64,000 nt of DNA from an uncultured Verrucomicrobiaceae bacterium (GCA_964473925.1 CAYYVW010000002.1:54206-118205), one strand, 5' to 3'; counted from the first letter of the stretch, positions 32,349-63,720 are shown. The notes: generated by a model from the sequence alone, not told the origin. Numbers and translations: made by a program.

Positions 32349-33407
32349 ATGTTTTTTACAGGGCTTGGAACGGCAGCCCCTCCGCAGCGTTACACCCAAC
32401 TCGAATGCCTGGAGGCGATCCGAGCGTGCGGGCTCTGGCGACAATTGGCCCCGCGATCGCAGGAGCTGCTACAGAAAGTTTTCTCAGGCAAAAATGGAAT
32501 TGAGACGCGCCACCTGGCGATTACCGACTGGGAGAAGTTTTTCGTTCTGAGCCCCGATGTCCTGCAGGCTCGCTTTACAGAGCAAGCGCCAAAATTGGCG
32601 ACAGAAGCGGCGCAACGCGCGCTTGCCGCAGCGCGGCTTAAGCCAGAAGAAATCGATGCGGTGATTATCAGCACGTGCACGGGGTATCTTTGTCCGGGAC
32701 TGACAAGTTATGTGAGCGAGCGTTTGGGACTGCGGCCCGACGTTCACGCGCTGGACTTGGTGGGGCAGGGCTGCGGCGCCGCGATGCCAAACGTGCGGAC
32801 GGCGGAAGCGTTGTTGGCCGGGGGCCGAGCACGCCATGTTTTATCCGTTTGCGTCGAGGTGTGCAGCGCCGCGTTTTATTTGGATGACGACCCGGGCGTG
32901 CTCATCAGCGCATGTCTGTTTGGTGACGGAGCCGGAGCCGCGGTGCTTTCCGCCGAGCCGAATCAAAATTCGCGGCGCATCGAATGGAAAACAATGGAGA
33001 GCTTTTTAAGTCCGGAAGACCGTGATTGTTTGCGCTTCGAGCATCGCCACGGAATGCTGCGCAATATCCTGACCCGTGAGGTTCCAGTGCTGGCGGGCAA
33101 GCAGGTTAAAAAGATTTTGGAGCAAGCGCTCAAGGCCGCCGACTTAAAGCAGGCGGACATCACCGGCTGGATCTTTCATGCGGGCGGCCGCGAAGTGCTC
33201 GCCGCGCTGCAAAAATATGTCGGCGTTACCGAGGCAGATTTGCGCCTGAGCGCTTCGGTCCTGCGCGATTTCGGCAACGTGAGCAGCCCGTGCGTATTTT
33301 TTGTGCTCGAGCGCGCGCTCCAGCAACAGCAGCCCGGCGGTTGGTGGTGGCTCTCGTCCTTCGGGGCCGGGTTCAGCTGCTACGGGGCGTTATTGAAAGT
33401 CGATTAG
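32349..33407 (+). CDS. Type III polyketide synthase (chalcone/stilbene synthase superfamily)
   Basis: The Cys-His-Asn triad is in its canonical contexts: LVGQGCGAAM, WIFHAGGREVL, FGNVSSPCVFFVL. Confidence 0.9.
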   Translation: MFFTGLGTAAPPQRYTQLECLEAIRACGLWRQLAPRSQELLQKVFSGKNGIETRHLAITDWEKFFVLSPDVLQARFTEQAPKLATEAAQRALAAARLKPEEIDAVIISTCTGYLCPGLTSYVSERLGLRPDVHALDLVGQGCGAAMPNVRTAEALLAGGRARHVLSVCVEVCSAAFYLDDDPGVLISACLFGDGAGAAVLSAEPNQNSRRIEWKTMESFLSPEDRDCLRFEHRHGMLRNILTREVPVLAGKQVKKILEQALKAADLKQADITGWIFHAGGREVLAALQKYVGVTEADLRLSASVLRDFGNVSSPCVFFVLERALQQQQPGGWWWLSSFGAGFSCYGALLKVD

Positions 33408-33412
33408 AAGCC

Positions 33413-34117
33413 ATGCGCCGCATCGTTGAGCCGGAGCTCCTGGACGAATTGCAGCCCGCGGATTTGCGAGCGATCGGCTCTCGCGGAGATCTTCAACGGC
33501 TCAATGGAATCATGGGGCACGCGGCCATTCTTGCGCGCGCGCTACGGGGCTGCTTGCGCCTTGAAGCTTCTTCCTCGCGTCGCTTGCAATTGATGGAGCT
33601 GGGCGCAGGCGACGGCACGCTGCTTTTGAAAGTAGCGCAACAATGCTCGATGCGCGGATTGAGCGCCGACGTAATTTTGGTGGACCGCCAGAACTTGATT
33701 TCAGAACAAACGCAGCGGGCATTTGCCGCGCTCAACTGGTCTATTAAAATCATGACGGCCGATGCGCAGGAAGCGCTGGAGCGCGCACCTCAACGCGTCG
33801 ACGTAATTTGCGCGAATCTGTTTCTGCATCACTTTGCCGACGATGCGTTGCGCGCTCTTTTGCAGACAGCGGCGCAAAAAACGAATTTGTTTGTCGCGTG
33901 TGAACCGCGTCGATGCGTGCGGGGATTGGTAGCGGCGCGGTTCTTGGGACTGATCGGGTGCAACGCGATTACGCGGCATGACGCCCGGGTCAGCGTGCGG
34001 GCCGGATTCGCGGGGAAGGAACTCTCTGTTCTGTGGCCGGCCGCAGAGAGCTGGGAGCTGCACGAGCGCTCCGCCGGATTCTTCAGCCATTTTTTTAGCG
34101 CCACACGTCATGCGTAA
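33413..34117 (+). CDS. Class I SAM-dependent methyltransferase
   Basis: Motif I LMELGAGDGTLL. It starts 6 nt after the PKS stop, and its stop overlaps the next gene (ATGCGTAA). Start trimmed to the ATG at 33413. Confidence 0.8.
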   Translation: MRRIVEPELLDELQPADLRAIGSRGDLQRLNGIMGHAAILARALRGCLRLEASSSRRLQLMELGAGDGTLLLKVAQQCSMRGLSADVILVDRQNLISEQTQRAFAALNWSIKIMTADAQEALERAPQRVDVICANLFLHHFADDALRALLQTAAQKTNLFVACEPRRCVRGLVAARFLGLIGCNAITRHDARVSVRAGFAGKELSVLWPAAESWELHERSAGFFSHFFSATRHA

Positions 34118-35144
34118 GCCCATTACCGTCGTGGGGGGCGGACTCGCGGGACTGGCCCTCGGGATCGGCCTGCGTCAGCGAGAGGTTCCGGTCGTGCTCT
34201 GGGAAGCGGGGCGGTATCCGCGGCATCGCGTCTGCGGCGAGTTTATCAGCGGCCAAGGGCAAGAATCCTTGCGGCGGCTTGGGTTGCTTGAAATGGTGAA
34301 TCGCGCGCGCGCGCAGCAAGCGACCAGCGCCGCATTTTTCCTCGAGCAGAGAGCGTTTCCCAAGCGCGATCTGCCTGAGCCCGCCCTCTGCATTTCGCGT
34401 TTTATCTTGGATGAGCTGCTCGCGGGCGAATTCCAACGCTTGGGTGGAGAACTCCGCGCCGGACAACGTTGGGACGGAAAATATGGCGAAGGAATCGTCC
34501 GAGCGAGCGGGCGTCACCCGCGGCCAATCACCGAGGGCTGGAGGCTCTTCGGATTGAAAATCCATGCTAGCAACGTCCCGCTGAAGGCGGACTTGGAAGT
34601 TCATTTTACGCCGTCCGGATACGTCGGCCTTTGCCGCTTGGTGGACGGGAAGACGAACATCTGCGGCTTGTTCCGCAGCAAGACGACGGTACCCGATCTC
34701 GCGCAGCGTTACCGCGAATGGCTGAGCGGCCCGCCAGGCTCGAGGCTCAGCGCGCGGCTGAGCGCGGCGCAGCTGGACGAGGGGTCGCTTTGTTCGGTCG
34801 CGGGCCTTTCCCTTGCTCCCCAACGAGCGGTCGATCGACACGAGTGCTGCGTCGGCGATGCGCTCACGATGATTCCGCCGGTCACCGGCAACGGCATGTC
34901 GATGGCGTTTGAGTCGGCAGAGCTGGCAATCGCGCCGTTGGCGAAATTTAGCCGGGGCGAGATGACATGGGCGCAGGCGCAGCGCTCCATCGCGGCGCAG
35001 TGTGACGCTCGGTTTGCGCGGCGGTTGCAGTGGGCGGGGCGGCTGCAAACGATTTTGTTTCGGCCGCGTCTGCGCGCGGCGCTTTTATTCCTGGGGGCGC
35101 ATTCGCAGTGGCTGTGGCGCGCGTGCTTCCATCAAACGCGTTAA
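34110..35144 (+). CDS. FAD-dependent oxidoreductase/monooxygenase (geranylgeranyl-reductase-like fold)
   Basis: N-terminal Rossmann motif ITVVGGGLAGLALGIGL. It overlaps the methyltransferase gene by 8 nt. Confidence 0.8.
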   Translation: MRKPITVVGGGLAGLALGIGLRQREVPVVLWEAGRYPRHRVCGEFISGQGQESLRRLGLLEMVNRARAQQATSAAFFLEQRAFPKRDLPEPALCISRFILDELLAGEFQRLGGELRAGQRWDGKYGEGIVRASGRHPRPITEGWRLFGLKIHASNVPLKADLEVHFTPSGYVGLCRLVDGKTNICGLFRSKTTVPDLAQRYREWLSGPPGSRLSARLSAAQLDEGSLCSVAGLSLAPQRAVDRHECCVGDALTMIPPVTGNGMSMAFESAELAIAPLAKFSRGEMTWAQAQRSIAAQCDARFARRLQWAGRLQTILFRPRLRAALLFLGAHSQWLWRACFHQTR

Positions 35145-39690: not shown

Positions 39691-39811
39691 GGACAAGCGA
39701 GTTGCGGCATTTATTATCATAAATTAAGGAAAAACTTATTGCCTTTGTGCTACTTTTCATATAGCGTCGCGTGAAAGCTGGCTATTTGTCATTGCAGCAG
39801 AGGCTGTTGTC

Positions 39812-40810
39812 GTGAAAAAGAAATTTCTCAATCCATTTCTGTTAGGGGCCATAGCGCTTGGCGTGATCAGCGTATTTCTGGTCATGAAATATTTGGACGC
39901 GCACACGGCGGATCTCAAGCGGGCCAATGATGAGCGCATCGCGGCCCTGCGGCGCGAGTTTGAAGATAAGCTCAAATCCGGCGGCAACGTCGTCCTCGAC
40001 AAAAAGCCCGAGCGCCCGGTTGTCTACGCGAAGCAGCCCATCGCTGCCAACCAGCGCATCGAAGCCGTCCTCGTTGAAATCAAGCAAACGCCGAAGGAGC
40101 TCATCGCGAACGGATTACAGTCGGTTGAAGAAGTGGCCGGCAAGTTCGCTTCCAAGCCGATTGAAATTGGCGAGCCGCTGACCACCGGAAACGTAACGGC
40201 TGAAGCGCAGACCATGTCCCAGCGGCTGACGCCCGGCCTGCGCGCGGTCTCCCTTCCGGTGCTTTCGCAGGCGAACGTCTCGGGCGGCTTTATCGCCAGC
40301 GGCGACCGCGTTGACCTTCTCTTTACCTACCCCGAGCCCGGCGTGCCGGGGCTGCGGACCGTGACGGCGTTGCAAAATGTGCGAGTGCTGTGGGTCCCTG
40401 GAAGCCCGGTTGAAACCAAGCAGACGGCGGGGCTCGCGCCCGCGCAGGCGCAGATTTCCAGCGGCGGCGTCACGTTTGAAGTAACTCCTTCCGAGGCAGA
40501 AATTTTGACCAACATGACCACCATCCGCGGCGGCGTCTTCAGCGTCGTGTTGCGATCGAAGACGGATGAGTCGATGGTCCGCACGCCTGGTCAGCGCCAG
40601 TCCGAGTTCCTGGAAAATCCGGGCGCGGTGCAACGCAAGTCCGATCGGTCGCAGGCGCAGACCCGCGAATTTTTAAAGCAGCTGGAAGAGCGCCGCGCCC
40701 AAGCGCAGGCACAAGAAGCAGCTGCCAGCTCTACCAACGCCGCACCCGCGGTTGAGGCGGCGGCGCCTACTGCTCCTGCCTCTGCTCCGACCGGAGAATC
40801 TCCCCAATGA
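39812..40810 (+). CDS. cpaB: Flp/Tad pilus assembly protein CpaB/RcpC
   Basis: GTG start, N-terminal TM anchor, SAF-like segment ...PIAANQRIEAVLVEIK...KPIEIGEPLTTGNV, and the C-terminal RcpC-type domain. Confidence 0.85.
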   Translation: MKKKFLNPFLLGAIALGVISVFLVMKYLDAHTADLKRANDERIAALRREFEDKLKSGGNVVLDKKPERPVVYAKQPIAANQRIEAVLVEIKQTPKELIANGLQSVEEVAGKFASKPIEIGEPLTTGNVTAEAQTMSQRLTPGLRAVSLPVLSQANVSGGFIASGDRVDLLFTYPEPGVPGLRTVTALQNVRVLWVPGSPVETKQTAGLAPAQAQISSGGVTFEVTPSEAEILTNMTTIRGGVFSVVLRSKTDESMVRTPGQRQSEFLENPGAVQRKSDRSQAQTREFLKQLEERRAQAQAQEAAASSTNAAPAVEAAAPTAPASAPTGESPQ

Positions 40811-43476
40811 AAATAACTATACGATTGTGCAAACGTGAGCCAAAGGCCCGCGCCCGACAGTGGATCGCGGCCGGTTTGGTTGCCGGATTTGCGGGCCTTG
40901 TCGCGGTTGTGGGCTTGAGCGGGGCGCTTGCGCCTTCCGCACACGCTCAGGCCGATGCAGGTCCGGCTATCCGCACCGAGCATCTGGATATTGGCCTCAC
41001 CGAAACTAAAACGCTGACGTTCGATCACGCGGTGGAAGATTTTACTGTCTCCGCGCCGGCGTTCGTAAATGTGGATCGCGCGGAAGGCAGTCAATCGCAG
41101 CTGACAGTCAGCGGGTTGGTGCTTGGCAGCGCGAACGTGCGCGTGCGCGTCGGCGGGCAGACGATCGATTATCTAGTCACGGTCACGCCGCAACCGGAAC
41201 GCATTTACATCAACATCCCCGAGTCCAAGCGGCTGACGTTCGCCAAACCGGTGGACGATGTTGCTGCATCCAAGGCGGGAGTAGTGCGGATCGTCCAGCC
41301 GAACGACAACGTAGTTCTTTTAGAAGCGCTCGATGGCGGACAAGGCAATGCCAAGACGACGGTGACGGTTCAATCGGGCGGGCAGCTGTACCGGTACTTC
41401 GTTTCAACGCTGGAGAATCGCGGCGCGGACATGCTGGAAATCCAGAACGCATTTGCAGCCAAGGGATACAAAAATCTGGTTGTCGCGTTTGACCGGGATC
41501 AGGTGACGATCACTGGGTCGGTCCCCACGCAGGAAGAACTCGATGATGCCGTGCGGATCGTCAAGCAGTACACTCCGTACGTAATTGTCCGGGCGGCGCT
41601 CGGCACGCCGACGGTCAGCGGACAGTTCGAGCAGGAAGAAGCGTTTATCGTCAACAGCATCAAGCGCATCTCGGGCGTGCCGAAGCTGACGGTGGTGGTG
41701 CAGTTCCCGCCGCCGCAGGTGGTGGAATCTTTTGAAGAGCGCTTCCAGGGGGGTGATACTTTTAATGCAGGCGACACGGTGATTGGACAGTCGGGGGTGA
41801 CAACGACTTCCAGCGGCCGGTTTGATTCGCCGCGCGACGACGAAGGCAACAACCGTCCGCCGCCAAGGCCGCGGGCGGGGACCGAGCGTCGCCGCGCGAC
41901 GACGATCAACCGGACAGTGCCGCAAAAGATTTTTTTGTATGGTGAGCTCGAAGACGATTTGCAGGAAGCCCGCGTGCTGCGCGTGGCGCGGACGTTTTGC
42001 CCGTACGTGGTCTCGTTCCTGCAGGTGAAAGACCCCATCCAGTTACGCGTTCGCCTTTCGTTCATCGAAGTGGACCTCACCCGCGGCCGCGAGATGGGCG
42101 TGCTCTGGTTTAACTCGAACTCTGGAACTGATCCGGTAACCGGTCTGCCCGTTTTTTCCGGCCCCAATGTTTCGCTGGATAATTTGAGCACCAGCTACTC
42201 GAATTTGGCGTCGGGCTCATTCGGTTCGCAGCTCTTGAGCAACCTGACGTACGGCCTGACGATGGATTGGTCGGCGACCTTGCGCTTTACTGAGTCGCGC
42301 GGGATTACCAAGACGGTGCAGTCGGCGACGCTCTTTTTGCTCAACGGCCAGCCGGGGACCTATCAAGACGGCGGTAACGTGCCCGTTGTGATTGGCTTTA
42401 CCTCGGGCGGTCCGGGATCTCCACCCGTGCCAGTGGTGGGCCAGCAGGAAGTGGGCATTACCGTCCTCATCCAACCGCTGACGGCCGAGCGCGGCCAGCA
42501 GGCGGCGGTGACGGGCGGGGCGCGGTCGGATCTGGTGGTCAATTTCCCTAACAGTTTGAGCAACACCAACCTCGGAGAGGTCGCGTCGCTGGGCAAGTAC
42601 ATGAACTTGCTGACGGCTCCTTACAACGGCCAGATCGACGAGAGCGTCAAATACGTCGGCGAGAACGGGCTGATCGGCATGAACGTGCGCACGCAGATTG
42701 CCGCGCCCGCCGGGAATGTGCTAGTCGCAGGGCAAGAGACCTCTTCGTTTAGCGTACGCAACGTCAATACGCGCGCGTTCGTCAACAACGGCCAATCCGT
42801 CGTTGTGTCGGGCTTGAATGACAAATCCCGCCGGATCTCTTCCAATGAGATTCCGTGGGTGAGCCGCATTCCAATTTTGGGTTACCTCTTCAAAAATCCG
42901 TCACGCAGCGAACGCGACCGGGAAATTTTGCTGGTGGTCTCTCCCGAGATTGTTCGGATGAAGGGCCCGCAGAGCGGATTTACACCTAAGCCAACCCTGC
43001 CCGAAACGCAGGAGCAAATGACCGAGCAAGGACCCGATGGCGTCGTGCCGGTGGCTTCAGGGGTCGAGCGGTATGAGCCGCCGCGGCCCAAGGCGCGTCC
43101 TTCCAAGAGGACCAAGACCGTCGCGAGCGCTTCTACTCGCCGCAAATCGACGACGGCTGCTCCCGCACTGCGTTCCGGGGTGGAGCCGACGGCCACGATT
43201 ACTTTACCTGCTCCGGAAGGATCCACTGAGCCAGCGCCGACAATTGCGCCGATCGCTATCGATCGTGCTCCCGTGCGCCCGCGCCCACCCGAGCCCGAGC
43301 CCGAGCCCGAGCCCGCTGCCGCTCCTCCTGAACCGCAGGCCCCGCCCTCGGGAACGGTGATTGATGCGGCCGCCGCCGCGCCGCCTTCTTCTCCTGCTTC
43401 CAGCGCTCCAGCTGCAGACGCGAACCAGAACGGGGCCGCGGCGGATGCGCCGGACCCTGCTGGAACGCTGCCATGA
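40807..43476 (+). CDS. cpaC: Tad secretin CpaC/RcpA, unusually long (889 aa) with a Pro/Ala-rich C-terminal tail
   Basis: It overlaps cpaB as ATGA. Two pilus-N-type repeats, a BON-like segment (VTITGSVPTQEELDDAVRIV), and a secretin core ending ...REILLVVSPEIVRM, followed by ~190 low-complexity residues. Confidence 0.85.
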   Translation: MKITIRLCKREPKARARQWIAAGLVAGFAGLVAVVGLSGALAPSAHAQADAGPAIRTEHLDIGLTETKTLTFDHAVEDFTVSAPAFVNVDRAEGSQSQLTVSGLVLGSANVRVRVGGQTIDYLVTVTPQPERIYINIPESKRLTFAKPVDDVAASKAGVVRIVQPNDNVVLLEALDGGQGNAKTTVTVQSGGQLYRYFVSTLENRGADMLEIQNAFAAKGYKNLVVAFDRDQVTITGSVPTQEELDDAVRIVKQYTPYVIVRAALGTPTVSGQFEQEEAFIVNSIKRISGVPKLTVVVQFPPPQVVESFEERFQGGDTFNAGDTVIGQSGVTTTSSGRFDSPRDDEGNNRPPPRPRAGTERRRATTINRTVPQKIFLYGELEDDLQEARVLRVARTFCPYVVSFLQVKDPIQLRVRLSFIEVDLTRGREMGVLWFNSNSGTDPVTGLPVFSGPNVSLDNLSTSYSNLASGSFGSQLLSNLTYGLTMDWSATLRFTESRGITKTVQSATLFLLNGQPGTYQDGGNVPVVIGFTSGGPGSPPVPVVGQQEVGITVLIQPLTAERGQQAAVTGGARSDLVVNFPNSLSNTNLGEVASLGKYMNLLTAPYNGQIDESVKYVGENGLIGMNVRTQIAAPAGNVLVAGQETSSFSVRNVNTRAFVNNGQSVVVSGLNDKSRRISSNEIPWVSRIPILGYLFKNPSRSERDREILLVVSPEIVRMKGPQSGFTPKPTLPETQEQMTEQGPDGVVPVASGVERYEPPRPKARPSKRTKTVASASTRRKSTTAAPALRSGVEPTATITLPAPEGSTEPAPTIAPIAIDRAPVRPRPPEPEPEPEPAAAPPEPQAPPSGTVIDAAAAAPPSSPASSAPAADANQNGAAADAPDPAGTLP
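43291..43314. repeat. Hexanucleotide microsatellite (GAGCCC)x4 in the secretin tail
   Basis: Read directly. It encodes EPEPEPEP. Confidence 0.9.
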
Positions 43477-44720
43477 TTGATGTTTTTCTCGTTTGCGACG
43501 ACGTCGACCGGGCGTCCGCCGTGCGCGCCGCCATCGCGGCGGACTCCGAGTTTGCGCTCGCTAGCGACGTACGAACAGGACGGGAAGGGATCTTCGCCAC
43601 CTCATCCATCGCGCGCGGGCACCCACGCCTTTTGGTAGTCCGCCTCGCGCTGGGCGACATGAACGGGTTGGAGGTAATTTCCCAAGTCCGCCAGAAATCG
43701 CCGGACATGTGGGTCGTTCCTATTTTGGAAGGGAACGAAGGCGGGCAGACGTGGCAGAGCCTGCTTCAGATGGAATTGCGTGACGTGATTGTCGGTCCGA
43801 TGCCGCCCGCGGAGATGCTCAAAGTCCTCCGCGCGGCAGGCGCACACGCGCAGGAGCTTTACAACGCCAACCGTGGGGTGCACGGCCCGATGACGGGAGA
43901 GGCGTATATCATCACGGTGGCCGGCGCGCGTTCCGGCGTTGGCAAATCCGTCATCGCCTGCAACTTGGCCGCTGTCTTGGCACGGCATAATCCCAACACT
44001 GCCTTTTTGGACTTTAGCCTCCATGCAGGCGACGTGATCGTCATGCTCGATGAGGTGCCGCGCAATACGATTCTGGAAGCGGTCGGCGCGGGCGGTGGGA
44101 TCGATGCCGAGTTGCTTAACAACCTGCTGGCGACGCATCCCAAGTACCGGATGCGCTACCTTGCCTGCCCTAATCAAGATTTTGATGCGTCGACCTTTGA
44201 TTACAACATCGCTCTTTCGATCGTGCAGACGATGCGTCACGTCAGCCAGTACGTGGTGATCGATACTGGCATGGCCTCCGTGGGCCCCACGATTGCAGCA
44301 GTGGATGCCAGTGATTTGACGTTTGTCGTCACGACGCGCGACGTGATCCGGCTGCTGGCGACTCAGCGCTTCCTCAAATATTTGAAAACCGACCGCAACG
44401 TTCCGAATGAGAAGATCAAGGTTCTGGTGAACCAGTCTGAGATCGGGGCGGAGATCTCCGAGAGTGAAATCGAGGCGCTGCTGGAACACCCAGTGGCGGC
44501 TTACCTGCCCTCAAACCCGGTCCCGGTTGCATTCTCAGTCAATAGCGGCAGCCCCATTACGATTGCCGAGCCGCAATATCCTATTTCCGTCGTGCTCAGC
44601 AAGCTGGCTGAGCTCTGTCTGCACCGTTGGCAGGAGCCGGTGAAGGGTTCGACTGCCAGTGGGGGACGAAGCGCCGGCGGAGGGCGGACGGGGCTTCCAA
44701 CAAAGATAAATTTACGTTAA
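43473..44720 (+). CDS. cpaE: CpaE/TadZ: receiver-like N-terminal domain plus ParA/MinD-like ATPase domain
   Basis: It overlaps cpaC by 4 nt. Deviant Walker A ITVAGARSGVGKSVIACNLA. Confidence 0.8.
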   Translation: MIDVFLVCDDVDRASAVRAAIAADSEFALASDVRTGREGIFATSSIARGHPRLLVVRLALGDMNGLEVISQVRQKSPDMWVVPILEGNEGGQTWQSLLQMELRDVIVGPMPPAEMLKVLRAAGAHAQELYNANRGVHGPMTGEAYIITVAGARSGVGKSVIACNLAAVLARHNPNTAFLDFSLHAGDVIVMLDEVPRNTILEAVGAGGGIDAELLNNLLATHPKYRMRYLACPNQDFDASTFDYNIALSIVQTMRHVSQYVVIDTGMASVGPTIAAVDASDLTFVVTTRDVIRLLATQRFLKYLKTDRNVPNEKIKVLVNQSEIGAEISESEIEALLEHPVAAYLPSNPVPVAFSVNSGSPITIAEPQYPISVVLSKLAELCLHRWQEPVKGSTASGGRSAGGGRTGLPTKINLR

Positions 44721-44884
44721 TCAAACGCGGATGGTCTTGTTGGATAAGAAGCAATTTGTGTATTAGATTAGATGAGAACAGGGAGAGGGGCAGGCGCAGA
44801 CCGACAGGCGCGCTTGGCTATTTTCCAACGCCGCTTTTTGCCGGGAGTCTGGGCTAGGCCGACTCACGGCTTGCGATATTTTTT

Positions 44885-46426
44885 ATGACACCGCCACCAC
44901 CACCGAATTTGGGAAGGCTTGCGCCCCCTCCCCCGCCTAATCTTGGCGGCGGATCTGTGCCGGCGGCGCCGCCTCCTGCAGCAGGAATGGGAATGCGTCC
45001 CGCCGCACCTCCGCCGTCTATGCCGTCGAGCTTGTTAAGCGGCGGCGGGCAAGCCGCGGCGTCCGCAGGCGGACATGGCGGCGCGGTCCAAGCGAGTTTT
45101 TCCGGAGGACGGGCGGGGAGCAACGCCCACGACCCGGCCCAAGAATTTGTCCATCAATTTAAAAAACAGCTTCTGCCGTATTTGGTTCAAGCCATTGAGC
45201 CGCGCCTTCTTGAAAAAGGAAATGAAGCGGCTTTGCGGGCGCGCATCGAGCAGCTGGTCGATGAGCGCTTAACAGCAGACAAGGTGCCAATCGGCCGTCA
45301 ACTGCGCGTCAAACTGCTCGGCGATATCATCAACGAAATGATCGGGTATGGCCCTTTGGAGGATTTGCTCAAGGACGACACCGTTTCGGAAATCATGGTC
45401 AACTATCCAATTGTTTACACGGAAATAAAGGGCCAAATCCTGCTTTCGCCGGTCCGGTTTGTGGATGAGGAGGGCTGCCGCCGCGTGATCGATCGCATTC
45501 TTTCTCCTTTGGGGCGCCGCGTGGATGAATCGAGCCCCATGTGTGACGCGCGCCTGCCGGATGGCTCGCGCGTCAACGTCATCATTCCGCCGCTGGCGCT
45601 CAACGGCCCGGTCATAACGATCCGCAAATTCAGCAAGAAGCCGCTGACGATGGAGCGGATGATCGAGTTTAAAACCCTCTCTCAGAGCATGGCGATGTTC
45701 CTGCGGGCTTCCGTCCACTGCACGCTCAACATCGTCATTTCAGGCGGCACCGGCTCCGGAAAAACGACGATGCTCAACGCACTCTCGTCCTACATTCCGC
45801 CGGCGGACCGCATCATCACAATCGAGGATGCCGCAGAATTACAGCTGCAGCAAGAGCACGTGGTGCGCCTGGAGAGCAAGCCGAAGAACATTGAAGGCAA
45901 GGGTGAGGTCACGATTCGTGACTTGGTGCGCAACTCGCTGCGTATGCGCCCCGACCGGATTGTCATCGGGGAGTGCCGCGGCGGAGAAGCGCTCGACATG
46001 ATTCAAGCGATGAACACGGGCCACGATGGTTCAATGACCACGACGCACGCCAACTCTCCCCGCGACGCGATCGCGCGTCTGGAGACGCTGGTGCTGATGG
46101 CAGGCATGGATCTGCCGCAGCTGGCCATCCGTCAGCAGATCGCCGGCGCCGTGCACTTGATCGTTCAGATCAGCCGTCTATCGGACCACTCGCGCAAGAT
46201 CACGTGCATCAGCGAAGTTCAGGGGATGGAGGGGAACATGGTGACGATGCAGGACATCTTTAAGTACGAGCAGACGGGCGTCACGCCGGAGGGCAAGCTG
46301 ATTGGCGTCACCCGCGGACTGGGAATTGTGCCTAAGAATCAAGTGCGGTTTAACGCCAACGATTTGAATATTCCCGTCGAGATTTATCAGAGCGTTCTTT
46401 ATCACAACGATCCCAATCAGGCCTAA
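44885..46426 (+). CDS. cpaF: CpaF/TadA secretion ATPase with a proline-rich N-terminal extension
   Basis: Walker [17 protein letters not shown]; ...[11 protein letters not shown]...[38 protein letters not shown]. Confidence 0.9.
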
Positions 46427-46440
46427 ACTCTAAACCGCAT

Positions 46441-47421
46441 ATGATGATTTTATTGGCCCTTACGGTGGTCGGCACATTTGCGCTAGCCGCGATGGCGATC
46501 GTGCAAGCGCAAGGAGCGCCGGGCGTTGATTTGCGCCAGAAACTCAAGAGCCTCACGAGCCAGCCGGAAGGATTGGTCAAAGAGGTTTCCTTGGGAATCG
46601 AGGAGCGCAAGCTGCCGCGTTTTGATTTTCGCAAAATCTTTAGTCGTTTCACTGGGCAAGCATATATCGAATCGGTTGAGCGCGCGCTGGTTCAGTCCGA
46701 CATCCCGATGCGCGCGGGTGAGTTTTTGTTGCTTCGAGTGGGCATGATCCTTGGAGCATTTTTAATTGTGCAGTTTTTTACGGGAGTTTTCGGGTACGCG
46801 GTGGCGGCGGCGGCACTGGCGGCGATTATCCACATTCCTTTCATGAGCATTAAGCGCGGAATGCGCATCAATAAATTCGTCGGCCAGCTGGCCGAGTTTT
46901 TGATCTTGGTGACCAACTCGCTGCGCGCCGGACAGACATTTTTGCAGGGGGTGGATATTGCCAGTAAAGAGTCGCCCAATCCGATTGGCCTGGAGTTTCG
47001 TCAGTTGCTCAAGGAGACAAGCCTGGGTCTGCCGGTCGACCAAGCCTTCACGAACATGCTGCAGCGGGTGCCCAGCGAGGATCTGCAGATTGTGATGAGC
47101 GCGTTCACCATTCAGCGCAATATCGGCGGTAATTTGGCGGACATTATGGATCAGGTTGCGGCGACGATTCGCCAGCGCATTCAAATCCAGGGGCAAATTC
47201 GCGTGCTTACCACCCAAGGAAAGCTTTCGGGCGCGATCGTCGGCCTTTTGCCAATTGGCTTGGGCACGATTGTCAGTTTCATGAATTACGACTACATGGC
47301 GCTTTTGTGGCGGCATGATCCCATCGCCGGCTGGGCCGGGCCCATCATGCTGGGCATCGGCATTTTCATGCAGCTGCTCGGCTGCTTTGTCATTCACAAG
47401 ATTTGCCAAATTGAAGTTTAG
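46441..47421 (+). CDS. tadB: TadB (type II secretion system F-domain membrane protein)
   Basis: T2SSF-type domain ...LAEFLILVTNSLRAGQTFLQGVDIA... with flanking TM helices. Confidence 0.85.
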   Translation: MMILLALTVVGTFALAAMAIVQAQGAPGVDLRQKLKSLTSQPEGLVKEVSLGIEERKLPRFDFRKIFSRFTGQAYIESVERALVQSDIPMRAGEFLLLRVGMILGAFLIVQFFTGVFGYAVAAAALAAIIHIPFMSIKRGMRINKFVGQLAEFLILVTNSLRAGQTFLQGVDIASKESPNPIGLEFRQLLKETSLGLPVDQAFTNMLQRVPSEDLQIVMSAFTIQRNIGGNLADIMDQVAATIRQRIQIQGQIRVLTTQGKLSGAIVGLLPIGLGTIVSFMNYDYMALLWRHDPIAGWAGPIMLGIGIFMQLLGCFVIHKICQIEV

Positions 47422-47445
47422 AACCTAACCCATTCATTTTTTTCC

Positions 47446-48390
47446 ATGATGACGCTACTCATCGCGCTGACCTTGCTGGGGGCCTTTGTGCTTCTGGGAA
47501 TCGGCATGCTTCCGGCGGAGGCGTCGTCGATCGGCAAGCGGCTGGAAGGCTTGCAAGCCGCGGCAGCAGGAACGGACGTCAAAGCCTCCCTGCGGGATGC
47601 GGAGGAAATGAACAAGAGCTTCATCGTCCGCGTGATGCTTCCCTTGGCAGACCGGTTTTCAAAAATTTTCTCGACCATCACGCCGGTTGGCATGATGGAC
47701 CGCGCGCGCAAGGATATCGCCGCGGCTGGGATGATCGGCAAGGTGACGGCTGTTCAGCTCACCACGCTCTCATGGATTTTGATGATCGGCCTACCTGGTA
47801 TCATGTGGATGGCGACGGCGTCCAAACCGCGCAGTTTTTCGGAATGGGGCTTTATTTTGCTCGCGCTGATGCTGGGCTATCGGCTGCCGATCGGCGTCGT
47901 CAAAAGCCGCGCCAAGCGCCGGCAAACCGCGGTTTTGCGGTCACTTCCCTTTACGCTGGATCTGATTTGCATCAGCGTGGAGGCCGGCGTTTCATTTGAC
48001 GGCGCCATTCAAATCGTAACCGAAAAAACTAAAGGACCGCTGACCGACGAGTTGGCGCTCGCCCTGCGCGAGGTGCGTCTGGGCAAAGGCCGCAACGAAG
48101 CGCTCTTGGATATTGCGCAACGGACGGGCGTGGAGGATCTCAGGAACTTTCTTTCGGCAGTGGTCTACATTTCCCGTCTGGGCGGCAGCTTGGTCAACGT
48201 CATCCGGATTCAGGCTGACGCGATCCGAATTCGCCGCCGCCAGCGCGCGGAAGAAAAGGCGATGAAAACGCCGGTTAAAATCATGATCCCGCTGGTGCTC
48301 TTCATCTTTCCGGCGATGTTCATTGTCATCCTGGGTCCTGCGGGGATTCGCTTGATGCAAAACATGGCCAACTCCGTCTTGTCTCCCTAA
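47446..48390 (+). CDS. tadC: TadC (type II secretion system F-domain membrane protein)
   Basis: ...LPFTLDLICISVEAGVSFDGAIQIV...RRQRAEEKAMKTPVKIMIPLVLFIFPAMF. Confidence 0.85.
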   Translation: MMTLLIALTLLGAFVLLGIGMLPAEASSIGKRLEGLQAAAAGTDVKASLRDAEEMNKSFIVRVMLPLADRFSKIFSTITPVGMMDRARKDIAAAGMIGKVTAVQLTTLSWILMIGLPGIMWMATASKPRSFSEWGFILLALMLGYRLPIGVVKSRAKRRQTAVLRSLPFTLDLICISVEAGVSFDGAIQIVTEKTKGPLTDELALALREVRLGKGRNEALLDIAQRTGVEDLRNFLSAVVYISRLGGSLVNVIRIQADAIRIRRRQRAEEKAMKTPVKIMIPLVLFIFPAMFIVILGPAGIRLMQNMANSVLSP

Positions 48391-48401
48391 AGAGGTCTTT
48401 T

Positions 48402-48998
48402 ATGTACAAACTGATTCGCCGCAAAAGTAAGAACGCTGCGGCGCCGCTGCGGGCAGGGACGCGGCGGAGGAACCAGGCGCAGACCACGGTCGAGTTCGCG
48501 CTGATCGTCTGGCCATTTCTGCTTTTGCTTTTCGCAACCATTGATTACGCGCAGCTTTATTTCTACGACTCCTCACTGCGCCATGCGCTGCGCGAGGCAG
48601 GGCGGTTTGCCACCACGGGCAACGTGATGCGGACCAATTTCGTTCTCTCCAACGGGCCGTTGCAAAGCAGTTACGAGGCCAACAAGCCAATTTCACGGAT
48701 GGAAAGCATTCGGCGCATCTTTCAGACCAATTGCCTCGTGAACACGCCGATTACTAATATTGTTGTTGAGAGTTGGCCCGGGCTTGCGGAAACGGGGACC
48801 GAAGCAGCCCCCAATAAAGGGCCTGGAGACGCGGACGATAATGTGCGCATTAAAGTGAGCGCCGAAGTGCCGATGATTACGCGGCTTTTTTTTACGAATA
48901 CCAAGTATAAGACAACGGTTACATCTGTGTTTCGCAATGAGCCGTCGCGCAATTTTTTGAACACCATTACAACCAACTACTATGGAGCGGAGCCTTAG
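48402..48998 (+). CDS. tadE: TadE-like pseudopilin 1
   Basis: N-terminus ...RRNQAQTTVEFALIVWPFLLLLFATIDYAQ is the TadE signature (xxVEFALxxP). Confidence 0.8.
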   Translation: MYKLIRRKSKNAAAPLRAGTRRRNQAQTTVEFALIVWPFLLLLFATIDYAQLYFYDSSLRHALREAGRFATTGNVMRTNFVLSNGPLQSSYEANKPISRMESIRRIFQTNCLVNTPITNIVVESWPGLAETGTEAAPNKGPGDADDNVRIKVSAEVPMITRLFFTNTKYKTTVTSVFRNEPSRNFLNTITTNYYGAEP

Positions 48999-49001
48999 GC
49001 C

Positions 49002-49613
49002 ATGAAAACGCTTCCTATTTTCATTCGGCAAGGCCGCCGCCGCTGCCGCAGCCAGTCCTTGGTTGAGTTTACGCTGATCCTGCCGATCTTTTTGACGCTG
49101 ATGTGCGCCGTTTTTGACTACGGCTACATGATTACCAATGCCCAGATTTTGGCGATGGCAGCGCGGGAAGGGGCCAGTACCGCGACCCGGCAGGTTATTT
49201 TGCCCATTGAAGCTGGCCTTCAAGCAGTGACCAACGCGGCACATCCCCGCCTTAATCTGGCCGGGCCGACGGGCGCGTGCATCATCACCAAAGTGGTATA
49301 TGATCCTTCGACCAGCACCAACTATGTGTATGTACCCACCCCGGTTGATTCCTACTGCCTTTACCTGGGCGGGCTTTGGGGCGGCACGGCGAATGATGTC
49401 TGCAATAAAAGCCGGATTCTTTCCGCGGACGGGACCGACCCACAGCCATGGAAGTGCCGCCGCCGCCAGCTTCCTTTTGCCGGTTCTTGGCTCGCCACCA
49501 ACCAAGAGATGTACGTGGTGGAAGTCTTTCTCACCAATCAGTTTGTAACGCCGATTGGAAGATTGATCGGCTTGGTGACGCCCCCCATCCTTTACGACGC
49601 TGCTTTCTTCTGA
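49002..49613 (+). CDS. tadE: TadE-like pseudopilin 2
   Basis: ...CRSQSLVEFTLILPIFLTLMCAVFDYGYM. Confidence 0.8.
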   Translation: MKTLPIFIRQGRRRCRSQSLVEFTLILPIFLTLMCAVFDYGYMITNAQILAMAAREGASTATRQVILPIEAGLQAVTNAAHPRLNLAGPTGACIITKVVYDPSTSTNYVYVPTPVDSYCLYLGGLWGGTANDVCNKSRILSADGTDPQPWKCRRRQLPFAGSWLATNQEMYVVEVFLTNQFVTPIGRLIGLVTPPILYDAAFF

Positions 49614-49659
49614 CATGTTACAACAGGGCCCAAAATAACTTTTAACGAACGGATTCTTT

Positions 49660-51852
49660 ATGAAGCGCAACCCTCGTTCCAGTCAGACGTTCGTTTTTTT
49701 TCTCATCTCGTTCGGAGCCATTTGGCTGCTCTGCGGCCTGGGCCTGGATGGAGCGCTGCTTTATTTATCAAAAGCCCGCATCAGCCGGGCGTGTGACGCC
49801 GCGGTTATTTCCGGCGTCAAAAACTTCCCCAAGGGCCGGGATCAAGTGTCGGCCATTATGCGCAATATTGCGGCAGCAAATTACACGGACTTGTCCGTTG
49901 TTCCATCAACGCCGACCAGTGTAGCCACCAACAATCTTGCGGGCGGCGACATCGAGTACGTTTATCTTTATACCAACGCAGCGAGAGGCAACAGCGTTAC
50001 CTGTACGATCGGAACGGGCTCGGCCGGGCAGGTGACGCGGGCCCAATGTGATGCGAGCGTCAAGCAGCGGACGCTCTTTATGTCTTTCACCGGGCTGGAC
50101 CGGGTGACGAACTTTCGCGTGCATGCGCTTGCCGAAGCGCAGCGGCGCCCGCGCCTGATTATGCTCGTCCTCGACCGCTCGTGGTCCCTCCGGGTTCAGA
50201 ACACCGGGTATCTGACGCTGCCTCCGGCCGTTTCGAACTTCCTGACGCTTTTTGATACGAATGCGGATCGCATCGGCATGGTTTCCTTCTCCGATTTTGC
50301 GCGACTGGAAATGCCGATTACCAACAACTTTATTGTGTTGGGAACTAATAAACTATCGTCAGCAGATTCGATCCTGGCGACAGATAACCCATCGGGCATC
50401 AAGTTCGGAGGTTCCACGGCGGCGGAAGAAGGGATGCGCTTGGGGCTCGAAACGCTTAAGGCCGATAGCGGGTACACCGATCCGCGCACGCTTAAGTACA
50501 TCGTTTTCTTTACGGACGGTGAATTTAACTCCGTCAGATCGTTGTATGCCTCGCCATGCTGGACCAACACCGTGTATGTGCCGTCTGGCGCGACGGGCGC
50601 GCAACTCAGGACGAATATTCTCCAAATGCCCAATGTTACTAACATCCCATTTGCAACGGCTGCCCGGATAGGCGCCCCCACAAATTATTTACGGCCTACG
50701 ACCAATACCGCGACCGGCAGCACCGCCTATTCCACCAATTTGGATATTTGGATGATGCCTGGATCCATCAATTTCACATTCCGTACCGGAAACACAAACC
50801 CTGTTATTACGATTAGCCAGCTGACCAACATGAGCATTTCAGTCAAGCTGGTGCCCGGCGAGACCAACATGCTCGTTGTTCCAGGTTTTGTCATCGATGG
50901 CGTGGGATATAGCAAGCACGACACAGCAATCAGCCAGTACAGCAGCGCGTCCTTTATTAGGTGGCCTGACACGGCAACCCCCAGCCTGTCAACACTGCGC
51001 AGGTATATGGTGCGGCACCCAACCAATCTGTGGGGGGGGCTGCGCGTCTATAAACCGGACGATCCGGATCTGAACGGTGACGGCCAGCCTGACAATCTGA
51101 GCGGAAGCAATCAGTATCCGGCGGGAGCCTTTTACTGGCCAATGAACACGGTAAAGCTTCTGAGCAGCTCTTCTTTCGCTGTGGGACAAGTGCCTTGGAT
51201 GTCGACAAACCTAAGCGAGTCCGATTGGCGCGCCGCGGGCAGCTTATTTTACAACTCGAGCGGCCAAATGGCGGCCGATGCCGCGTGGCAGGTGGACGCG
51301 CCAGACTGGGTCACCAACGCATTTGCGAGCATCATGACTAATGATGCAGCGACAAAACAATGGCGGCCCATTTCCTATCGTGGCGTGCCGCTGGCTTCCG
51401 TAACGGCGGGGAGCCTGCCCACGCTTTACGGCATCCCCACGGCTACGCGCGGGGCAGTGCTATTGGCGGACGGGACCACGAATGTTAACGCAATGGCATG
51501 GGGATGTATGCCGACGCATTTTTATGATGCGGTAAATGCAGGGTGGCGGCCCTTCACTAACTTCACCGATATGTCCATTCAGTTGCTGGCAGTCGGCAAC
51601 TGGAAGACAAGACGGTACTGCGATGAGGCCCGGCAAGACAGCGTGACGATCTACACGCTTGGGTTCGGAAGCGGCGTGCCGGCGTCCCAGGGCACAGTCC
51701 TGCGTGCCATGGCCAATGACCCGACGGTAGGCTCTCCAACATTCCAGGCCGACCAGCCGATCGGAAAGTATTACTTCACGACCAACGCAGCGGATCTCTT
51801 TAGTTACTTCAAGGAAATCGCGGAGCGAATCCAGGCAGTCATCACGCAGTAG
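49660..51852 (+). CDS. tadG: TadG-like protein with a von Willebrand factor A domain (730 aa)
   Basis: N-terminal TadG-type hydrophobic segment FVFFLISFGAIWLLCGLGLDGALLY. vWA MIDAS motif LVLDRSWSL, later VFFTDGEFN and IYTLGFG. Confidence 0.8.
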   Translation: MKRNPRSSQTFVFFLISFGAIWLLCGLGLDGALLYLSKARISRACDAAVISGVKNFPKGRDQVSAIMRNIAAANYTDLSVVPSTPTSVATNNLAGGDIEYVYLYTNAARGNSVTCTIGTGSAGQVTRAQCDASVKQRTLFMSFTGLDRVTNFRVHALAEAQRRPRLIMLVLDRSWSLRVQNTGYLTLPPAVSNFLTLFDTNADRIGMVSFSDFARLEMPITNNFIVLGTNKLSSADSILATDNPSGIKFGGSTAAEEGMRLGLETLKADSGYTDPRTLKYIVFFTDGEFNSVRSLYASPCWTNTVYVPSGATGAQLRTNILQMPNVTNIPFATAARIGAPTNYLRPTTNTATGSTAYSTNLDIWMMPGSINFTFRTGNTNPVITISQLTNMSISVKLVPGETNMLVVPGFVIDGVGYSKHDTAISQYSSASFIRWPDTATPSLSTLRRYMVRHPTNLWGGLRVYKPDDPDLNGDGQPDNLSGSNQYPAGAFYWPMNTVKLLSSSSFAVGQVPWMSTNLSESDWRAAGSLFYNSSGQMAADAAWQVDAPDWVTNAFASIMTNDAATKQWRPISYRGVPLASVTAGSLPTLYGIPTATRGAVLLADGTTNVNAMAWGCMPTHFYDAVNAGWRPFTNFTDMSIQLLAVGNWKTRRYCDEARQDSVTIYTLGFGSGVPASQGTVLRAMANDPTVGSPTFQADQPIGKYYFTTNAADLFSYFKEIAERIQAVITQ

Positions 51853-57515: not shown

Positions 57516-58574
57516 TTACCCGCCTCCGCCGAGTTCTTGAATCAGATGCACGAGCGGCAGGAAGAGCGAGAGAACCACTCCGCCGACGATCACCCCCAAC
57601 AGCGCGCTGAGCACCGGCTCGACCAGACCCGTGAGCCGAGCGATCGTCGTTTCGACCTGTTGGTCGTACAGGTCCGCCGCGCGCAGCAGCATCTGCCCCA
57701 GTCGCCCAGTTTCTTCTCCGACCTGCACCAGACTGGAGACCATCGCCGGGAAGTGGCGGGATGCGGCCAACAGGCGTCCGAGCGGCTGCCCCTGCTGAAC
57801 TTGCTCCCGCAAATGCGCCAGTGCCCGCGCGAGCTTTGGATCACGGCCCATCGTTTGGGTGATTTCCAGCGCGGATAAGAGCGGCACGCCGGATTCGACG
57901 AGCGTTCCGAGCGTGCGCGTAATCTGTGCCAGTGCGATTTTTTCTGCGGCAGGCCCCACGAGCGGTATCCAGCGCGGAATTTGTTGCCCGCTCCATCGAG
58001 AGGCCAGCCACGTTCTTCCCAACCAAACGGCAACGATTCCTGCGGACAGGAGGCCCACCACCCAGATAGTTCGCTGCGTGATCCAGTCGCTGGCGCCCAG
58101 CACGGTTTGCGTGAGGAGAGGGAGCGGGCGATTTTCAAACGCGCCCAGCAGCAGGCTCTTAAATTCCGGAATAACCCAGACGAGTAAAAAAATAAAAATG
58201 AGCGCTGCGGCAATCAGTACAGCAGCGGGATAGAGCAGCGCGGTTACCACGCGTGCGCGGAGCCGCTCCATTCGCTCTTGAAAATCCGCGAGCCGCGCGA
58301 GAAGTTCCGGTAACGCTCCGCCCGCTTCTCCGGCGCGCACGAGCGAAACGTAGAGCGGGCCAAACGCGTCGGGCTGCGTTGCGAGCGCTTCGGAGAGCGC
58401 GTGCCCCGTCTGCACGAGCCCCGCGACGGAGGCAAGCCGCGCGCGGCGCTCCGGCATTTCTTCCTGCTCGACGAGTAGCTGCAAACTCCGCGCTAGCGGA
58501 ACCCCCGCGCCGACCAAGACCGCCAACTGGCGCGTGACCAGCGCCGGAATGCGCGCGCGGCTGGCAAATATCAT
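57516..58574 (-). CDS. gspF: GspF/PilC-family platform protein (two T2SSF domains, short N-terminus)
   Basis: ...LAVLVGAGVPLARSLQLL... and ...TRTLGTLVESGVPLLSALEIT. Its start overlaps the upstream stop as ATGA. Confidence 0.85.
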   Translation of the reverse strand: MIFASRARIPALVTRQLAVLVGAGVPLARSLQLLVEQEEMPERRARLASVAGLVQTGHALSEALATQPDAFGPLYVSLVRAGEAGGALPELLARLADFQERMERLRARVVTALLYPAAVLIAAALIFIFLLVWVIPEFKSLLLGAFENRPLPLLTQTVLGASDWITQRTIWVVGLLSAGIVAVWLGRTWLASRWSGQQIPRWIPLVGPAAEKIALAQITRTLGTLVESGVPLLSALEITQTMGRDPKLARALAHLREQVQQGQPLGRLLAASRHFPAMVSSLVQVGEETGRLGQMLLRAADLYDQQVETTIARLTGLVEPVLSALLGVIVGGVVLSLFLPLVHLIQELGGGG

Positions 58575-59791
58575 GCCACGGCTCCCAGCACTTCCTCCGC
58601 CGTCGTTTCACCAGCGAGCACACGCTGGCGGCCGCTGGACCGGAGAGAATCAAACCCGCATGCTTGCGCCGCCCGGCGCAACTCCACCGCGGGCGCGCGC
58701 TCGTGGATCAGCGCGTGCAAGGCCGGCGTGATTGGCCAGAGCTCCACCAGCGGCAAGCGTCCGCGGTAACCGGTGCCATGGCAATCATCGCAGCCGATTC
58801 CTTTGTGGAAATGCACGGCCGGCATCCCCGGCGCATCGAATCCGAATTCTTTCAGCAATTCCGGGGACGGCGCGAACGCGTGCCGGCAGGACGGACAAAT
58901 CCGCCGCACGAGCCGTTGCACGACCACGCCGGTGAGCGTCGCGCAGAGCAAGTACGGCTCAATCCCCAAATCAAGCAGTCGTGCGATCGCCCCGGCGCCA
59001 TCATGCGTGTGCAATGTGGTGAGGACGAGATGCCCCGTGAGCGCCGCCTGCACCGCCATCTGTGTCGTTTCGGCGTCGCGCATCTCGCCGACCATCAACA
59101 CGTCTGGGTCGTGTCGCAGGAGAGATCGCAGTGCCTGCGCAAAGCCCAGGCCGATCGCTTCCTCCACTTGCACCTGCACCGCGCCGGGCAGCTCGTATTC
59201 GACCGGGTCTTCCACCGTGACGATTTTTGCGCCGGGCCGGTTGAGCGTCTGCAAGTACGCATAGAGCGTCGTCGTTTTGCCAGAGCCGGTCGGTCCGGTC
59301 ACGACGACCAGCCCATGCGGCCGCTGCGTCCATTTTTCCAGCTGCTCCCGCACCGCGATGGGCAGGCCCAGCGCTTCTGGATCCAGCGCGACCGCCGTTT
59401 GATCGAGCACTCGCAACACGGCGCTCTCGCCCCATTGCGTCGGCAGCGTGCTGAGGCGCAAGTCGACCGTGCGTCCTTCCGCGGTGAAAGAGAAGCGACC
59501 ATCCTGCGGCGCGCGTTGCTCGGCGATATCCAATCGCGCGAGGACCTTTAAACGCGTTGCGATCGTTTTGCCCAGGAACGCGGGCGCAGGCGCCATCTCA
59601 TGCAGGGCTCCGTCGACGCGGTAGCGAATTTTCAGCTCATGCTCAAACGGTTCGAAATGAATGTCGCTGGCCCGTGCACGGACCGCTTGCGTCAGCACCG
59701 CCTCGACCAGCTCCACCAGCGGCGTTCCGGTTTGAGTCGGCGCGTGTTTGCGCCGGGCATCCTTGGGCGCCTTAATGCGGATCCCCTTCAT
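58571..59791 (-). CDS. gspE: GspE/PilB-family secretion ATPase, paralog 1 (no N-terminal N1E/GSPII domain)
   Basis: Walker A VTGPTGSGKTTTL, Walker B VLMVGEMRD, His box TGHLVLTTLHT, and tetracysteine CPSC...CDDC. Confidence 0.9.
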   Translation of the reverse strand: MKGIRIKAPKDARRKHAPTQTGTPLVELVEAVLTQAVRARASDIHFEPFEHELKIRYRVDGALHEMAPAPAFLGKTIATRLKVLARLDIAEQRAPQDGRFSFTAEGRTVDLRLSTLPTQWGESAVLRVLDQTAVALDPEALGLPIAVREQLEKWTQRPHGLVVVTGPTGSGKTTTLYAYLQTLNRPGAKIVTVEDPVEYELPGAVQVQVEEAIGLGFAQALRSLLRHDPDVLMVGEMRDAETTQMAVQAALTGHLVLTTLHTHDGAGAIARLLDLGIEPYLLCATLTGVVVQRLVRRICPSCRHAFAPSPELLKEFGFDAPGMPAVHFHKGIGCDDCHGTGYRGRLPLVELWPITPALHALIHERAPAVELRRAAQACGFDSLRSSGRQRVLAGETTAEEVLGAVA

Positions 59792-61797: not shown

Positions 61798-61834
61798 TCG
61801 AATGGTCTACGCTCCGCTTGCTCGGGGCGCAACT

Positions 61835-63286: not shown

Positions 63287-63333
63287 ATTTTCTTCTTATG
63301 CCGGCGCTTTCGGTTGCCGCCCATCCGGGCTCG

Positions 63334-63624: not shown

Positions 63625-63720
63625 AACAAACCTCGTACCGCACCAAAGGCATCTCGTCCAACCACTTTTTACTTGCTGGAGCGTCCGGCCCAGGGTTGTG
63701 TGTGTGGTCTTCCTGTCAAA

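Follow-up and report, generated by a model that had tools for sequence, protein, structure and literature searches.

Tad pilus genes without flp or tadV in a probable Verrucomicrobiota genome: where are the pilin and its peptidase encoded?

Introduction

What does a Tad pilus machine assemble when neither the gene for its pilin nor that for its prepilin peptidase lies beside it? The question is raised by a stretch of 64,000 nucleotides from an uncultured Verrucomicrobiaceae bacterium (GCA_964473925.1, CAYYVW010000002.1:54206-118205), here called the window, with positions counted from its first letter. Nine genes of a Tad/Cpa pilus system occupy positions 39812-51852. Canonical tad loci open with the pilin gene (flp or pilA) and the peptidase gene (tadV or cpaA), the order being flp-tadV-rcpCAB-tadZABCDEFG in Aggregatibacter and pilA-cpaA-K in Caulobacter. 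A first-pass annotation of the window took this order as its standard, which is sound for these two organisms and has documented exceptions, and it reported that both genes were missing. Three explanations were offered: the fibre subunit and the peptidase are encoded elsewhere, the TadE-like proteins are the only filament subunits, or the machine has been repurposed, for example for secretion or for adhesion through its vWA protein. The analysis described here points to the first of these and finds a place for the adhesin within it.

An intact Tad gene set

All nine genes were found on the plus strand where the annotation had placed them, and each belongs to the expected family. ORFs of the window were assigned with Pfam at curated cut-offs, and NCBIfam served as a second profile set. 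The order is rcpC/cpaB, secretin, tadZ/cpaE, cpaF/tadA, tadB, tadC, two tadE-like genes and a tadG-like gene with a vWA domain.

The first gene (39812-40810) encodes RcpC/CpaB, the periplasmic alignment-ring protein, with 332 aa and an N-terminal transmembrane segment. It matches PF16976 (E 5.9e-15) and a SAF domain, and it passes the NCBIfam model TIGR03177 CpaB with 111.8 bits against a cut-off of 71. The outer-membrane secretin of the RcpA/CpaC type (40807-43476, 889 aa) follows, with a PF00263 match over residues 618-717 (E 6.3e-25) and a weak match to BON; the PF16976 and PF00263 matches both exceed their cut-offs. Next comes a TadZ/CpaE-like protein of the ParA/MinD family (43473-44720, 415 aa), which has CbiA and ParA matches (CbiA 28.2 bits, cut-off 25.4), the P-loop GARSGVGKS and a receiver-like N-terminal domain matched by Response_reg. 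Its best NCBIfam model is that of the CpaE homologue, with a score under the cut-off.

The motor ATPase CpaF/TadA (44885-46426, 513 aa from the first ATG) matches PF00437 (T2SSE) with E 2.5e-62, and its Walker A motif (GGTGSGKTT), Asp box, Walker B motif and His box are all intact. Its best NCBIfam model is the TadA family at 316 bits, under the cut-off of 373, and the protein stands nearest the TadA and VirB11 families, not GspE/PilB. Homologues that are 60-85% identical to it are named CpaF; where an organism is given, as for a few of them, it is a metagenome-assembled genome (MAG) of Verrucomicrobiota or Candidatus Methylacidiphilales. The inner-membrane platform proteins are TadB (46441-47421, 326 aa, PF00482 E 2e-14, five predicted transmembrane segments) and TadC (47446-48390, 314 aa, PF00482 E 4.8e-21). 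Each has one T2SSF domain, so that the two form a pair of adjacent single-domain paralogues, in contrast to the two-domain GspF/PilC-type protein encoded at 57516-58574.

The last three genes encode pilin-like proteins. TadE-like minor pilin 1 (TadE1; 48402-48998, 198 aa, PF07811 E 1.2e-10) and TadE-like minor pilin 2 (TadE2; 49002-49613, 203 aa, PF07811 E 5.4e-12), the latter in the TadF position, both score over the family cut-off. The TadG-like large minor pilin (49660-51852, 730 aa) contains a vWA domain (PF00092, E 1.5e-7) and falls just below the PF13400 cut-off, with 21.9 bits against 22.3.

What the cluster presents is a real and intact set of Tad (type IVc) pilus genes, in a probable Verrucomicrobiota genome. 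It does not qualify as a type II secretion system: its ATPase scores only 49 bits against GspE and is CpaF/VirB11-like instead, and no GspC/L/M or GspG-type gene was found in the cluster with Pfam. The description of the machine as complete-looking holds for the nine genes, all of them intact, but has to be narrowed, since Pfam finds no gene for the pilotin TadD, a TPR lipoprotein, or for RcpB among them either. Likewise, overlaps of 4 nt do exist, but at two junctions only (40807-40810, between rcpC and the secretin gene, and 43473-43476, between the secretin gene and tadZ), where several had been described. The remaining junctions are gaps of 3-46 nt, plus one of 164 nt between tadZ and cpaF. 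Genes on either side of the cluster are unrelated to it: upstream lies one for a LysE-type translocator, and downstream a convergent one for a UbiE-type methyltransferase.

Two of the genes have unusual ends. The longest cpaF ORF opens with a proline-rich repeat (PPPPPNLG twice; 44885-44992), and there are two candidate start sites: with a start at 44993, 108 nt downstream of the first ATG and as in the database gene call P0001, CpaF has 477 aa and the gap to tadZ becomes 272 nt. The secretin continues past its secretin domain with a tail of about 170 aa (residues ~720-889) that is rich in Pro, Ala and Glu and probably disordered; secretins of relatives measure 615 to 867 aa, against 889 aa in the window.

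The search for a pilin and a prepilin peptidase

Neither an Flp-type pilin ORF nor a gene for an A24 prepilin peptidase is present in the cluster, in its gaps or in the full 64-kb window. Six-frame translation of the four gaps (39691-39811, 44721-44884, 48391-48401 and 49614-49659) yielded no pilin-like ORF. A six-frame scan of the whole window for the motif [GAS]x3-4E[aromatic/aliphatic] followed by a hydrophobic stretch recovered TadE1, and its other matches lay only inside unrelated long ORFs or in antisense frames. None of the 16 small window ORFs with a predicted transmembrane segment proved Flp-like on inspection, and comparison of 81 small or intergenic window ORFs with Pfam, one by one and at E<=1, gave zero Flp_Fap matches. 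Together, these four approaches uphold the report that the gaps hold no Flp pilin. They also bear on a case that the first-pass annotation had itself allowed for, a short pilin ORF overlooked within the cluster, which was looked for there and not found.

The peptidase was sought by its topology. An A24 peptidase necessarily spans the membrane several times, and no candidate for such an enzyme, or for TadV, was found among window ORFs of at least 100 aa with at least three predicted transmembrane segments. The multi-transmembrane ORFs of the window all belong elsewhere, namely to ABC-3, an ABC exporter (ABC_membrane), LysE, TadB and TadC (T2SSF) and the GspF/PilC-like protein. With each of them assigned to another family, the absence of a TadV/CpaA-like gene is borne out as well. 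Two small genes at 62894-63735, near the GspE/GspF module of the window, were checked as pilin candidates and are not pilins.

The same layout in related loci

Is this arrangement peculiar to one genome? Ten further loci from related metagenomic organisms were compared, the few named ones being Verrucomicrobiota or Methylacidiphilales. A metagenome scan with a TadG alignment gave five loci, and a scan of a genome collection with TadG found a single contig, L007, which is short and distant. For the window organism itself, independent Logan assemblies have identical junctions (L001).

The order rcpC-secretin-tadZ-cpaF-tadB-tadC-tadE-tadE-tadG is found in eight of the ten related loci. The nine genes stand in identical order in L003, L004, L010, L011, L018 and JGI 3300075153; L005/L006 and L013 have the matching order with a kinase and a regulator inserted between tadC and tadE1; and L012, a contig fragment, keeps the order from tadZ to tadG. 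Flanking genes vary among the related loci. Neither Flp_Fap nor Peptidase_A24 has a recorded match among the called genes of any of them, motif scans of these loci returned TadE proteins only and no Flp-like ORF, and a scan for multi-transmembrane ORFs in L011-L014 found no candidate of A24 size. Judged by this comparison of gene orders, the layout without flp and tadV is a conserved trait of the clade and not an accident of one genome. Because it recurs across relatives with differing flanks, the cluster is, on the same comparative grounds, a stable, selected module and not a truncated one.

One locus departs from the pattern in an informative way. L009, labelled Blastochloris sp. by its source and with a CpaF 61% identical to that of the window, has only the six machine genes rcpC-secretin-tadZ-cpaF-tadB-tadC (5910-13388). 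Housekeeping genes follow directly after its tadC, and no tadE or tadG lies within 10 kb. Because this locus carries the six core genes alone, pilin-type genes are separable from machine genes in this lineage.

The insert of L005/L006 and L013, which are deeper-branching loci, consists of a HisKA_3 histidine kinase and a LuxR-type response regulator (L005 13425-15208, L006 10615-12398, L013 6534-8275). It resembles a regulatory unit built into the minor-pilin module.

Several small genes in the relatives were tried as candidates and rejected. The L003 genes of 79 and 94 aa, considered as Flp or TadV, are not pilins, and neither is a 77-aa gene of L010. A gene of about 160 aa beside tadG in L003, L010, L018 and JGI 3300075153 has no cleavage motif and is not multi-transmembrane, and so is neither Flp nor TadV. 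This neighbour occurs in either orientation (L003 16771-17262; L010 17468-17953, minus strand; L018 12186-12662, minus strand; JGI 3300075153 12387-12884) and is absent from the window. It has no Pfam match, one N-terminal transmembrane segment and then a beta-rich domain, and its copies are weakly alike (BLASTP E about 0.002).

Leader sites of the pilin-like proteins

A peptidase leaves its mark on the proteins that it processes, and the three pilin-like proteins of the cluster carry predicted sites of this kind. The predicted class-III leader of TadE1 reads ...NQA26/QTTVEFALIV, with Ala at −1, and that of TadE2 ...CRS17/QSLVEFTLIL, with Ser at −1. In both, Glu at +5 and Phe at +6 precede a hydrophobic helix, and these two residues are invariant across the relatives. 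The N-terminus of TadG reads ...SS/QTFVFFLISF, with Ser (S8) as the small −1 residue. Throughout the clade (L003-L018), the conserved Gln of TadE1, TadE2 and TadG alike is preceded at −1 by G, A or S only, and in the two loci that branch deepest, L005 and L013, all three proteins have Gly there.

Because the −1 position is limited to small residues, as at a maintained cleavage site, the TadE-like proteins and TadG are very probably substrates of a class-III signal peptidase. PilD of bacteria strongly prefers Gly at −1 and handles Ala and Ser sites poorly, while archaeal enzymes accept G, A or S. The pattern of G, A and S in the clade suggests a peptidase that is tolerant of Ala and Ser.

A putative promoter region

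Upstream of rcpC lies a putative sigma-70-like promoter element on the plus strand (39736-39765), TTATTG and TATAGC separated by an 18-nt spacer, about 50-75 nt before the gene. In an alignment of the region upstream of rcpC from seven loci, it coincides with a stronger element of the relatives, TTGACG and TATACA with a spacer of about 17 nt, of which the window has a weaker version. Because the promoter-like element aligns upstream of rcpC in seven loci, the transcription unit appears to start at rcpC, which suggests that there is no upstream flp within the unit.

A sigma-54 promoter upstream of rcpC was considered for the window and rejected, as only a GG-N12-GC look-alike and no activator gene are present there. 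Most close relatives have a GT87 glycosyltransferase gene directly upstream of rcpC (regions 1681-4546 in L003, 2120-4963 in L004 and 1951-4875 in L010; 1-738 in L018; also JGI 3300075153). Beside it in L003, L004 and L010 lies a divergent sigma-54 activator gene (REC-AAA-HTH_8), and GG-N10-GC elements occur in the rcpC leader. The window instead has the LysE gene and two genes for periplasmic binding proteins upstream of rcpC.

TadG as a candidate tip adhesin

The vWA domain of TadG retains a full metal-ion-dependent adhesion site (MIDAS). Its residues D172-x-S174-x-S176, T253 and T285-D286-G287 are invariant in alignments of five and of 12 sequences (A2, A4). PF13400, which TadG of the window narrowly misses, is precomputed in 11 of 12 TadG homologues. 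An AlphaFold2 (AF2) model of the protein is poor overall, with a mean predicted local distance difference test (pLDDT) score of 50, and better over residues 10-160 (pLDDT 70-86), where a long N-terminal helix is followed by a beta-sheet, as expected of a pilin-like protein. The vWA fold is seemingly interrupted by an insert of about 330 residues, modelled with low confidence. Judged from the invariant MIDAS residues and by analogy with other Tad systems, TadG is a probable metal-dependent tip adhesin.

A model for the machine

The reading that accounts best for these results is that of a normal Tad machine with a TadE/TadF/TadG tip module, whose major pilin and peptidase are probably encoded elsewhere in the genome. 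A CpaF hexamer would be the motor that drives the TadB/TadC platform, and TadZ would position the machine. RcpC would form the periplasmic ring and the secretin the outer-membrane channel. TadE1, TadE2 and TadG would make up a minor-pilin module that primes the pilus or forms its tip, and the vWA/MIDAS domain of TadG would be displayed at the tip, where it would adhere in a metal-dependent manner. A remote gene would supply the major fibre subunit, in all likelihood a small pilin of the Flp type, and another the prepilin peptidase, which may be an orphan TadV or an enzyme of the PilD/GspO type. An enzyme of the latter type may be shared with a second type-IV-filament system encoded at 57516-60996, and it is a reasonable candidate because that system also needs a prepilin peptidase. 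Three elements of this model are inferences: that the pilin and peptidase genes are remote, what kind of enzyme the peptidase is, and that TadG serves as a tip adhesin.

Among the three explanations offered by the first-pass annotation, encoding elsewhere is therefore favoured, by the class-III motifs, by L009 and by published systems, though it is not proven. The idea of adhesion through the vWA protein fits within that explanation and does not compete with it, TadG with a variable C-terminal module being the normal component at the tip of Tad pili.

Comparison with known systems

The window cluster resembles the canonical Tad/Cpa loci in possessing RcpC, a secretin, TadZ, TadA, TadB, TadC, two proteins of the TadE/F type and TadG, in matching relative order. 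It differs from them in lacking flp/pilA and tadV/cpaA, both at the head of the operon and within 64 kb, and in lacking TadD and RcpB within the cluster. Its secretin, with the Pro/Ala-rich tail, is also much longer, its TadG carries a vWA domain, and the −1 residue of its leaders is A or S, not G. In published models TadD and RcpB are accessory components, and in the initial MacSyFinder model for Tad, tadV is a 'loner' that may be encoded apart (PMC6668835).

A first parallel is the Kil system of Myxococcus xanthus (PMC8460266, PMC12075869), which also has a TadE/F/G tip module and combines it with a remote pilin gene and a pilin peptidase that is probably encoded outside the cluster. Its major pilin, KilP (mxan_5121, 97 aa), lies far from both kil clusters and was overlooked for years by standard annotation (PMC12075869). 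KilP is not processed by the cluster peptidase KilA, and PilD is suspected instead; deletion of kilP abolishes Kil function (PMC12075869). The TadE/F/G homologues of Kil form a complex at the pilus tip in which TadG is the backbone that exposes a variable C-terminal module, and the same is predicted for other Tad pili (PMC12075869). The two systems also differ. Kil is encoded in two clusters with four tip sets and a short cluster-encoded peptidase, KilA, and works in predation with an apparatus that resembles a type III secretion system (T3SS). The window has one compact operon with one tip set, no peptidase or T3SS genes and no sign of predation.

Bdellovibrio bacteriovorus offers a second parallel. 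Its tad loci have no dedicated TadV, and PilD of its type IVa pilus (T4aP) cleaves Flp1 in E. coli (bioRxiv 10.64898/2026.07.08.737194). As in Bdellovibrio, a second filament system is co-resident with the Tad genes, here in the same window. In Bdellovibrio, however, the tad genes are dispersed over six loci, TadZ and TadA are fused and flp genes have been identified, whereas the window has one operon and no flp was found in it. A third case concerns the peptidase only. All loci of the mannose-sensitive haemagglutinin (MSH) pilus lack a peptidase gene (Denise et al. 2019, PMC6668835), so that here too type-IV-filament loci are systematically without this enzyme, which MSH presumably borrows from another system. 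Unlike the window system, MSH has known pilin genes, and it falls in another clade, one that arose from T4aP.

Most likely, then, the window locus is a further case, in a probable Verrucomicrobiota lineage, of a known arrangement in which a Tad machine has its pilin and peptidase encoded far away. If so, this lineage takes its place beside Myxococcus and Bdellovibrio, in which pilin or peptidase genes lie away from the machine operon. For annotation, it would mean that a Tad locus without flp and tadV is not to be scored as incomplete and that small pilin genes need a genome-wide search. The G/A/S pattern at −1 and the vWA-bearing TadG offer modest, testable leads on how pilins are processed and on tip adhesins in a phylum that has been little studied.

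Several points weigh against this reading. Neither flp nor an A24 gene was found in the 64-kb window or in the accessible flanks of the relatives. Those flanks reach up to 10 kb, less at the upstream edges of L011 and L018, and none contains flp, which, if present, must be consistently remote. Scattered Tad loci have been termed 'very rare' (PMC6668835). Finally, the canonical Gly at −1 is missing from all three pilin-like proteins (A, S and S here); cleavage at such Ala and Ser sites may be inefficient or may be carried out by an unusual enzyme.

Alternative explanations

An alternative that keeps the remote gene but changes its product is that the major subunit does not belong to the Flp family. 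Candidates would be a T4a-like pilin that also serves the neighbouring GspE/GspF-type system and a member of an undescribed family of small pilins. The presence of a second filament system in the window, the fast divergence of small pilins and the example of the 97-aa Myxococcus KilP that annotation long missed are consistent with this alternative. Nevertheless, the set of CpaF, TadB, TadC and RcpC is typical of Tad, and all known examples of such machines polymerise Flp-type pilins, which makes a subunit of another family unlikely.

A more radical proposal is a machine entirely without Flp, with the TadE-like pair and TadG as its sole pilin-like substrates. These would form a short pseudopilus or a structure limited to a tip, with the vWA adhesin on display, or act as a piston in the manner of a type II secretion system (T2SS), with no long fibre. 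Two observations agree with this. No relative has flp in its accessible flanks, and the minor-pilin genes stay with the machine genes everywhere except L009. In addition, A or S has replaced Gly at −1 in each of the three window proteins, so that processing is possibly altered or reduced. On the other side, every Tad system studied has TadE, TadF and TadG as minor components and depends on a separate major pilin, as the kilP deletion illustrates. The TadE-like proteins of the window, at 198 and 203 aa, have the usual size and domain of minor pilins, and no adaptation to fibre formation was seen in them. L009, moreover, has no adjacent tadE or tadG, so adjacency is no guide to what the machine uses. 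The annotation's suggestion that the TadE-like proteins are the only subunits gained no positive support, and a truly Flp-less machine is quite improbable. There is correspondingly a slim chance that a Verrucomicrobiota clade possesses a minimal pseudopilus that presents or extrudes a MIDAS adhesin, with a peptidase that accepts Ala and Ser or with no cleavage at all. Such a Tad-derived pseudopilus would be considerably more interesting than the ordinary case.

That the cluster is a decaying remnant, or that an assembly artefact removed flp and tadV, is hardly credible even though the source seems to be a MAG, because the nine ORFs are intact with conserved catalytic motifs, the independent assemblies of the same organism agree in their junctions (L001), related loci from other samples share the layout and a conserved promoter-like element stands directly upstream of rcpC.

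Other features of the window

The second type-IV-filament module (57516-60996, minus strand) lies 5.7 kb from the tad cluster. It encodes a tandem pair of GspE/PilB-like ATPases, each about 400 aa long, together with the two-domain GspF/PilC-like platform protein. The ATPases lack an N-terminal domain and align to the GspE/PilB models only from position ~100 or ~170 on. No pilin, secretin or peptidase gene adjoins the module, which is preceded by MBL-fold and GT2 genes (61006-62602) in the same direction.

Two further regions lie upstream of the tad cluster. The segment 27939-30198 has a lower GC content (0.53-0.55, against ~0.61 elsewhere) and small genes, among them one for an HMA protein that binds heavy metals and one for a metal-sensing repressor of the CsoR type; the segment may represent a metal-resistance island that was acquired. 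At 32349-35144, a gene that resembles those for type III polyketide synthases precedes one for an FAD-dependent monooxygenase, and the two may form a small secondary-metabolite or alkylresorcinol-type pair.

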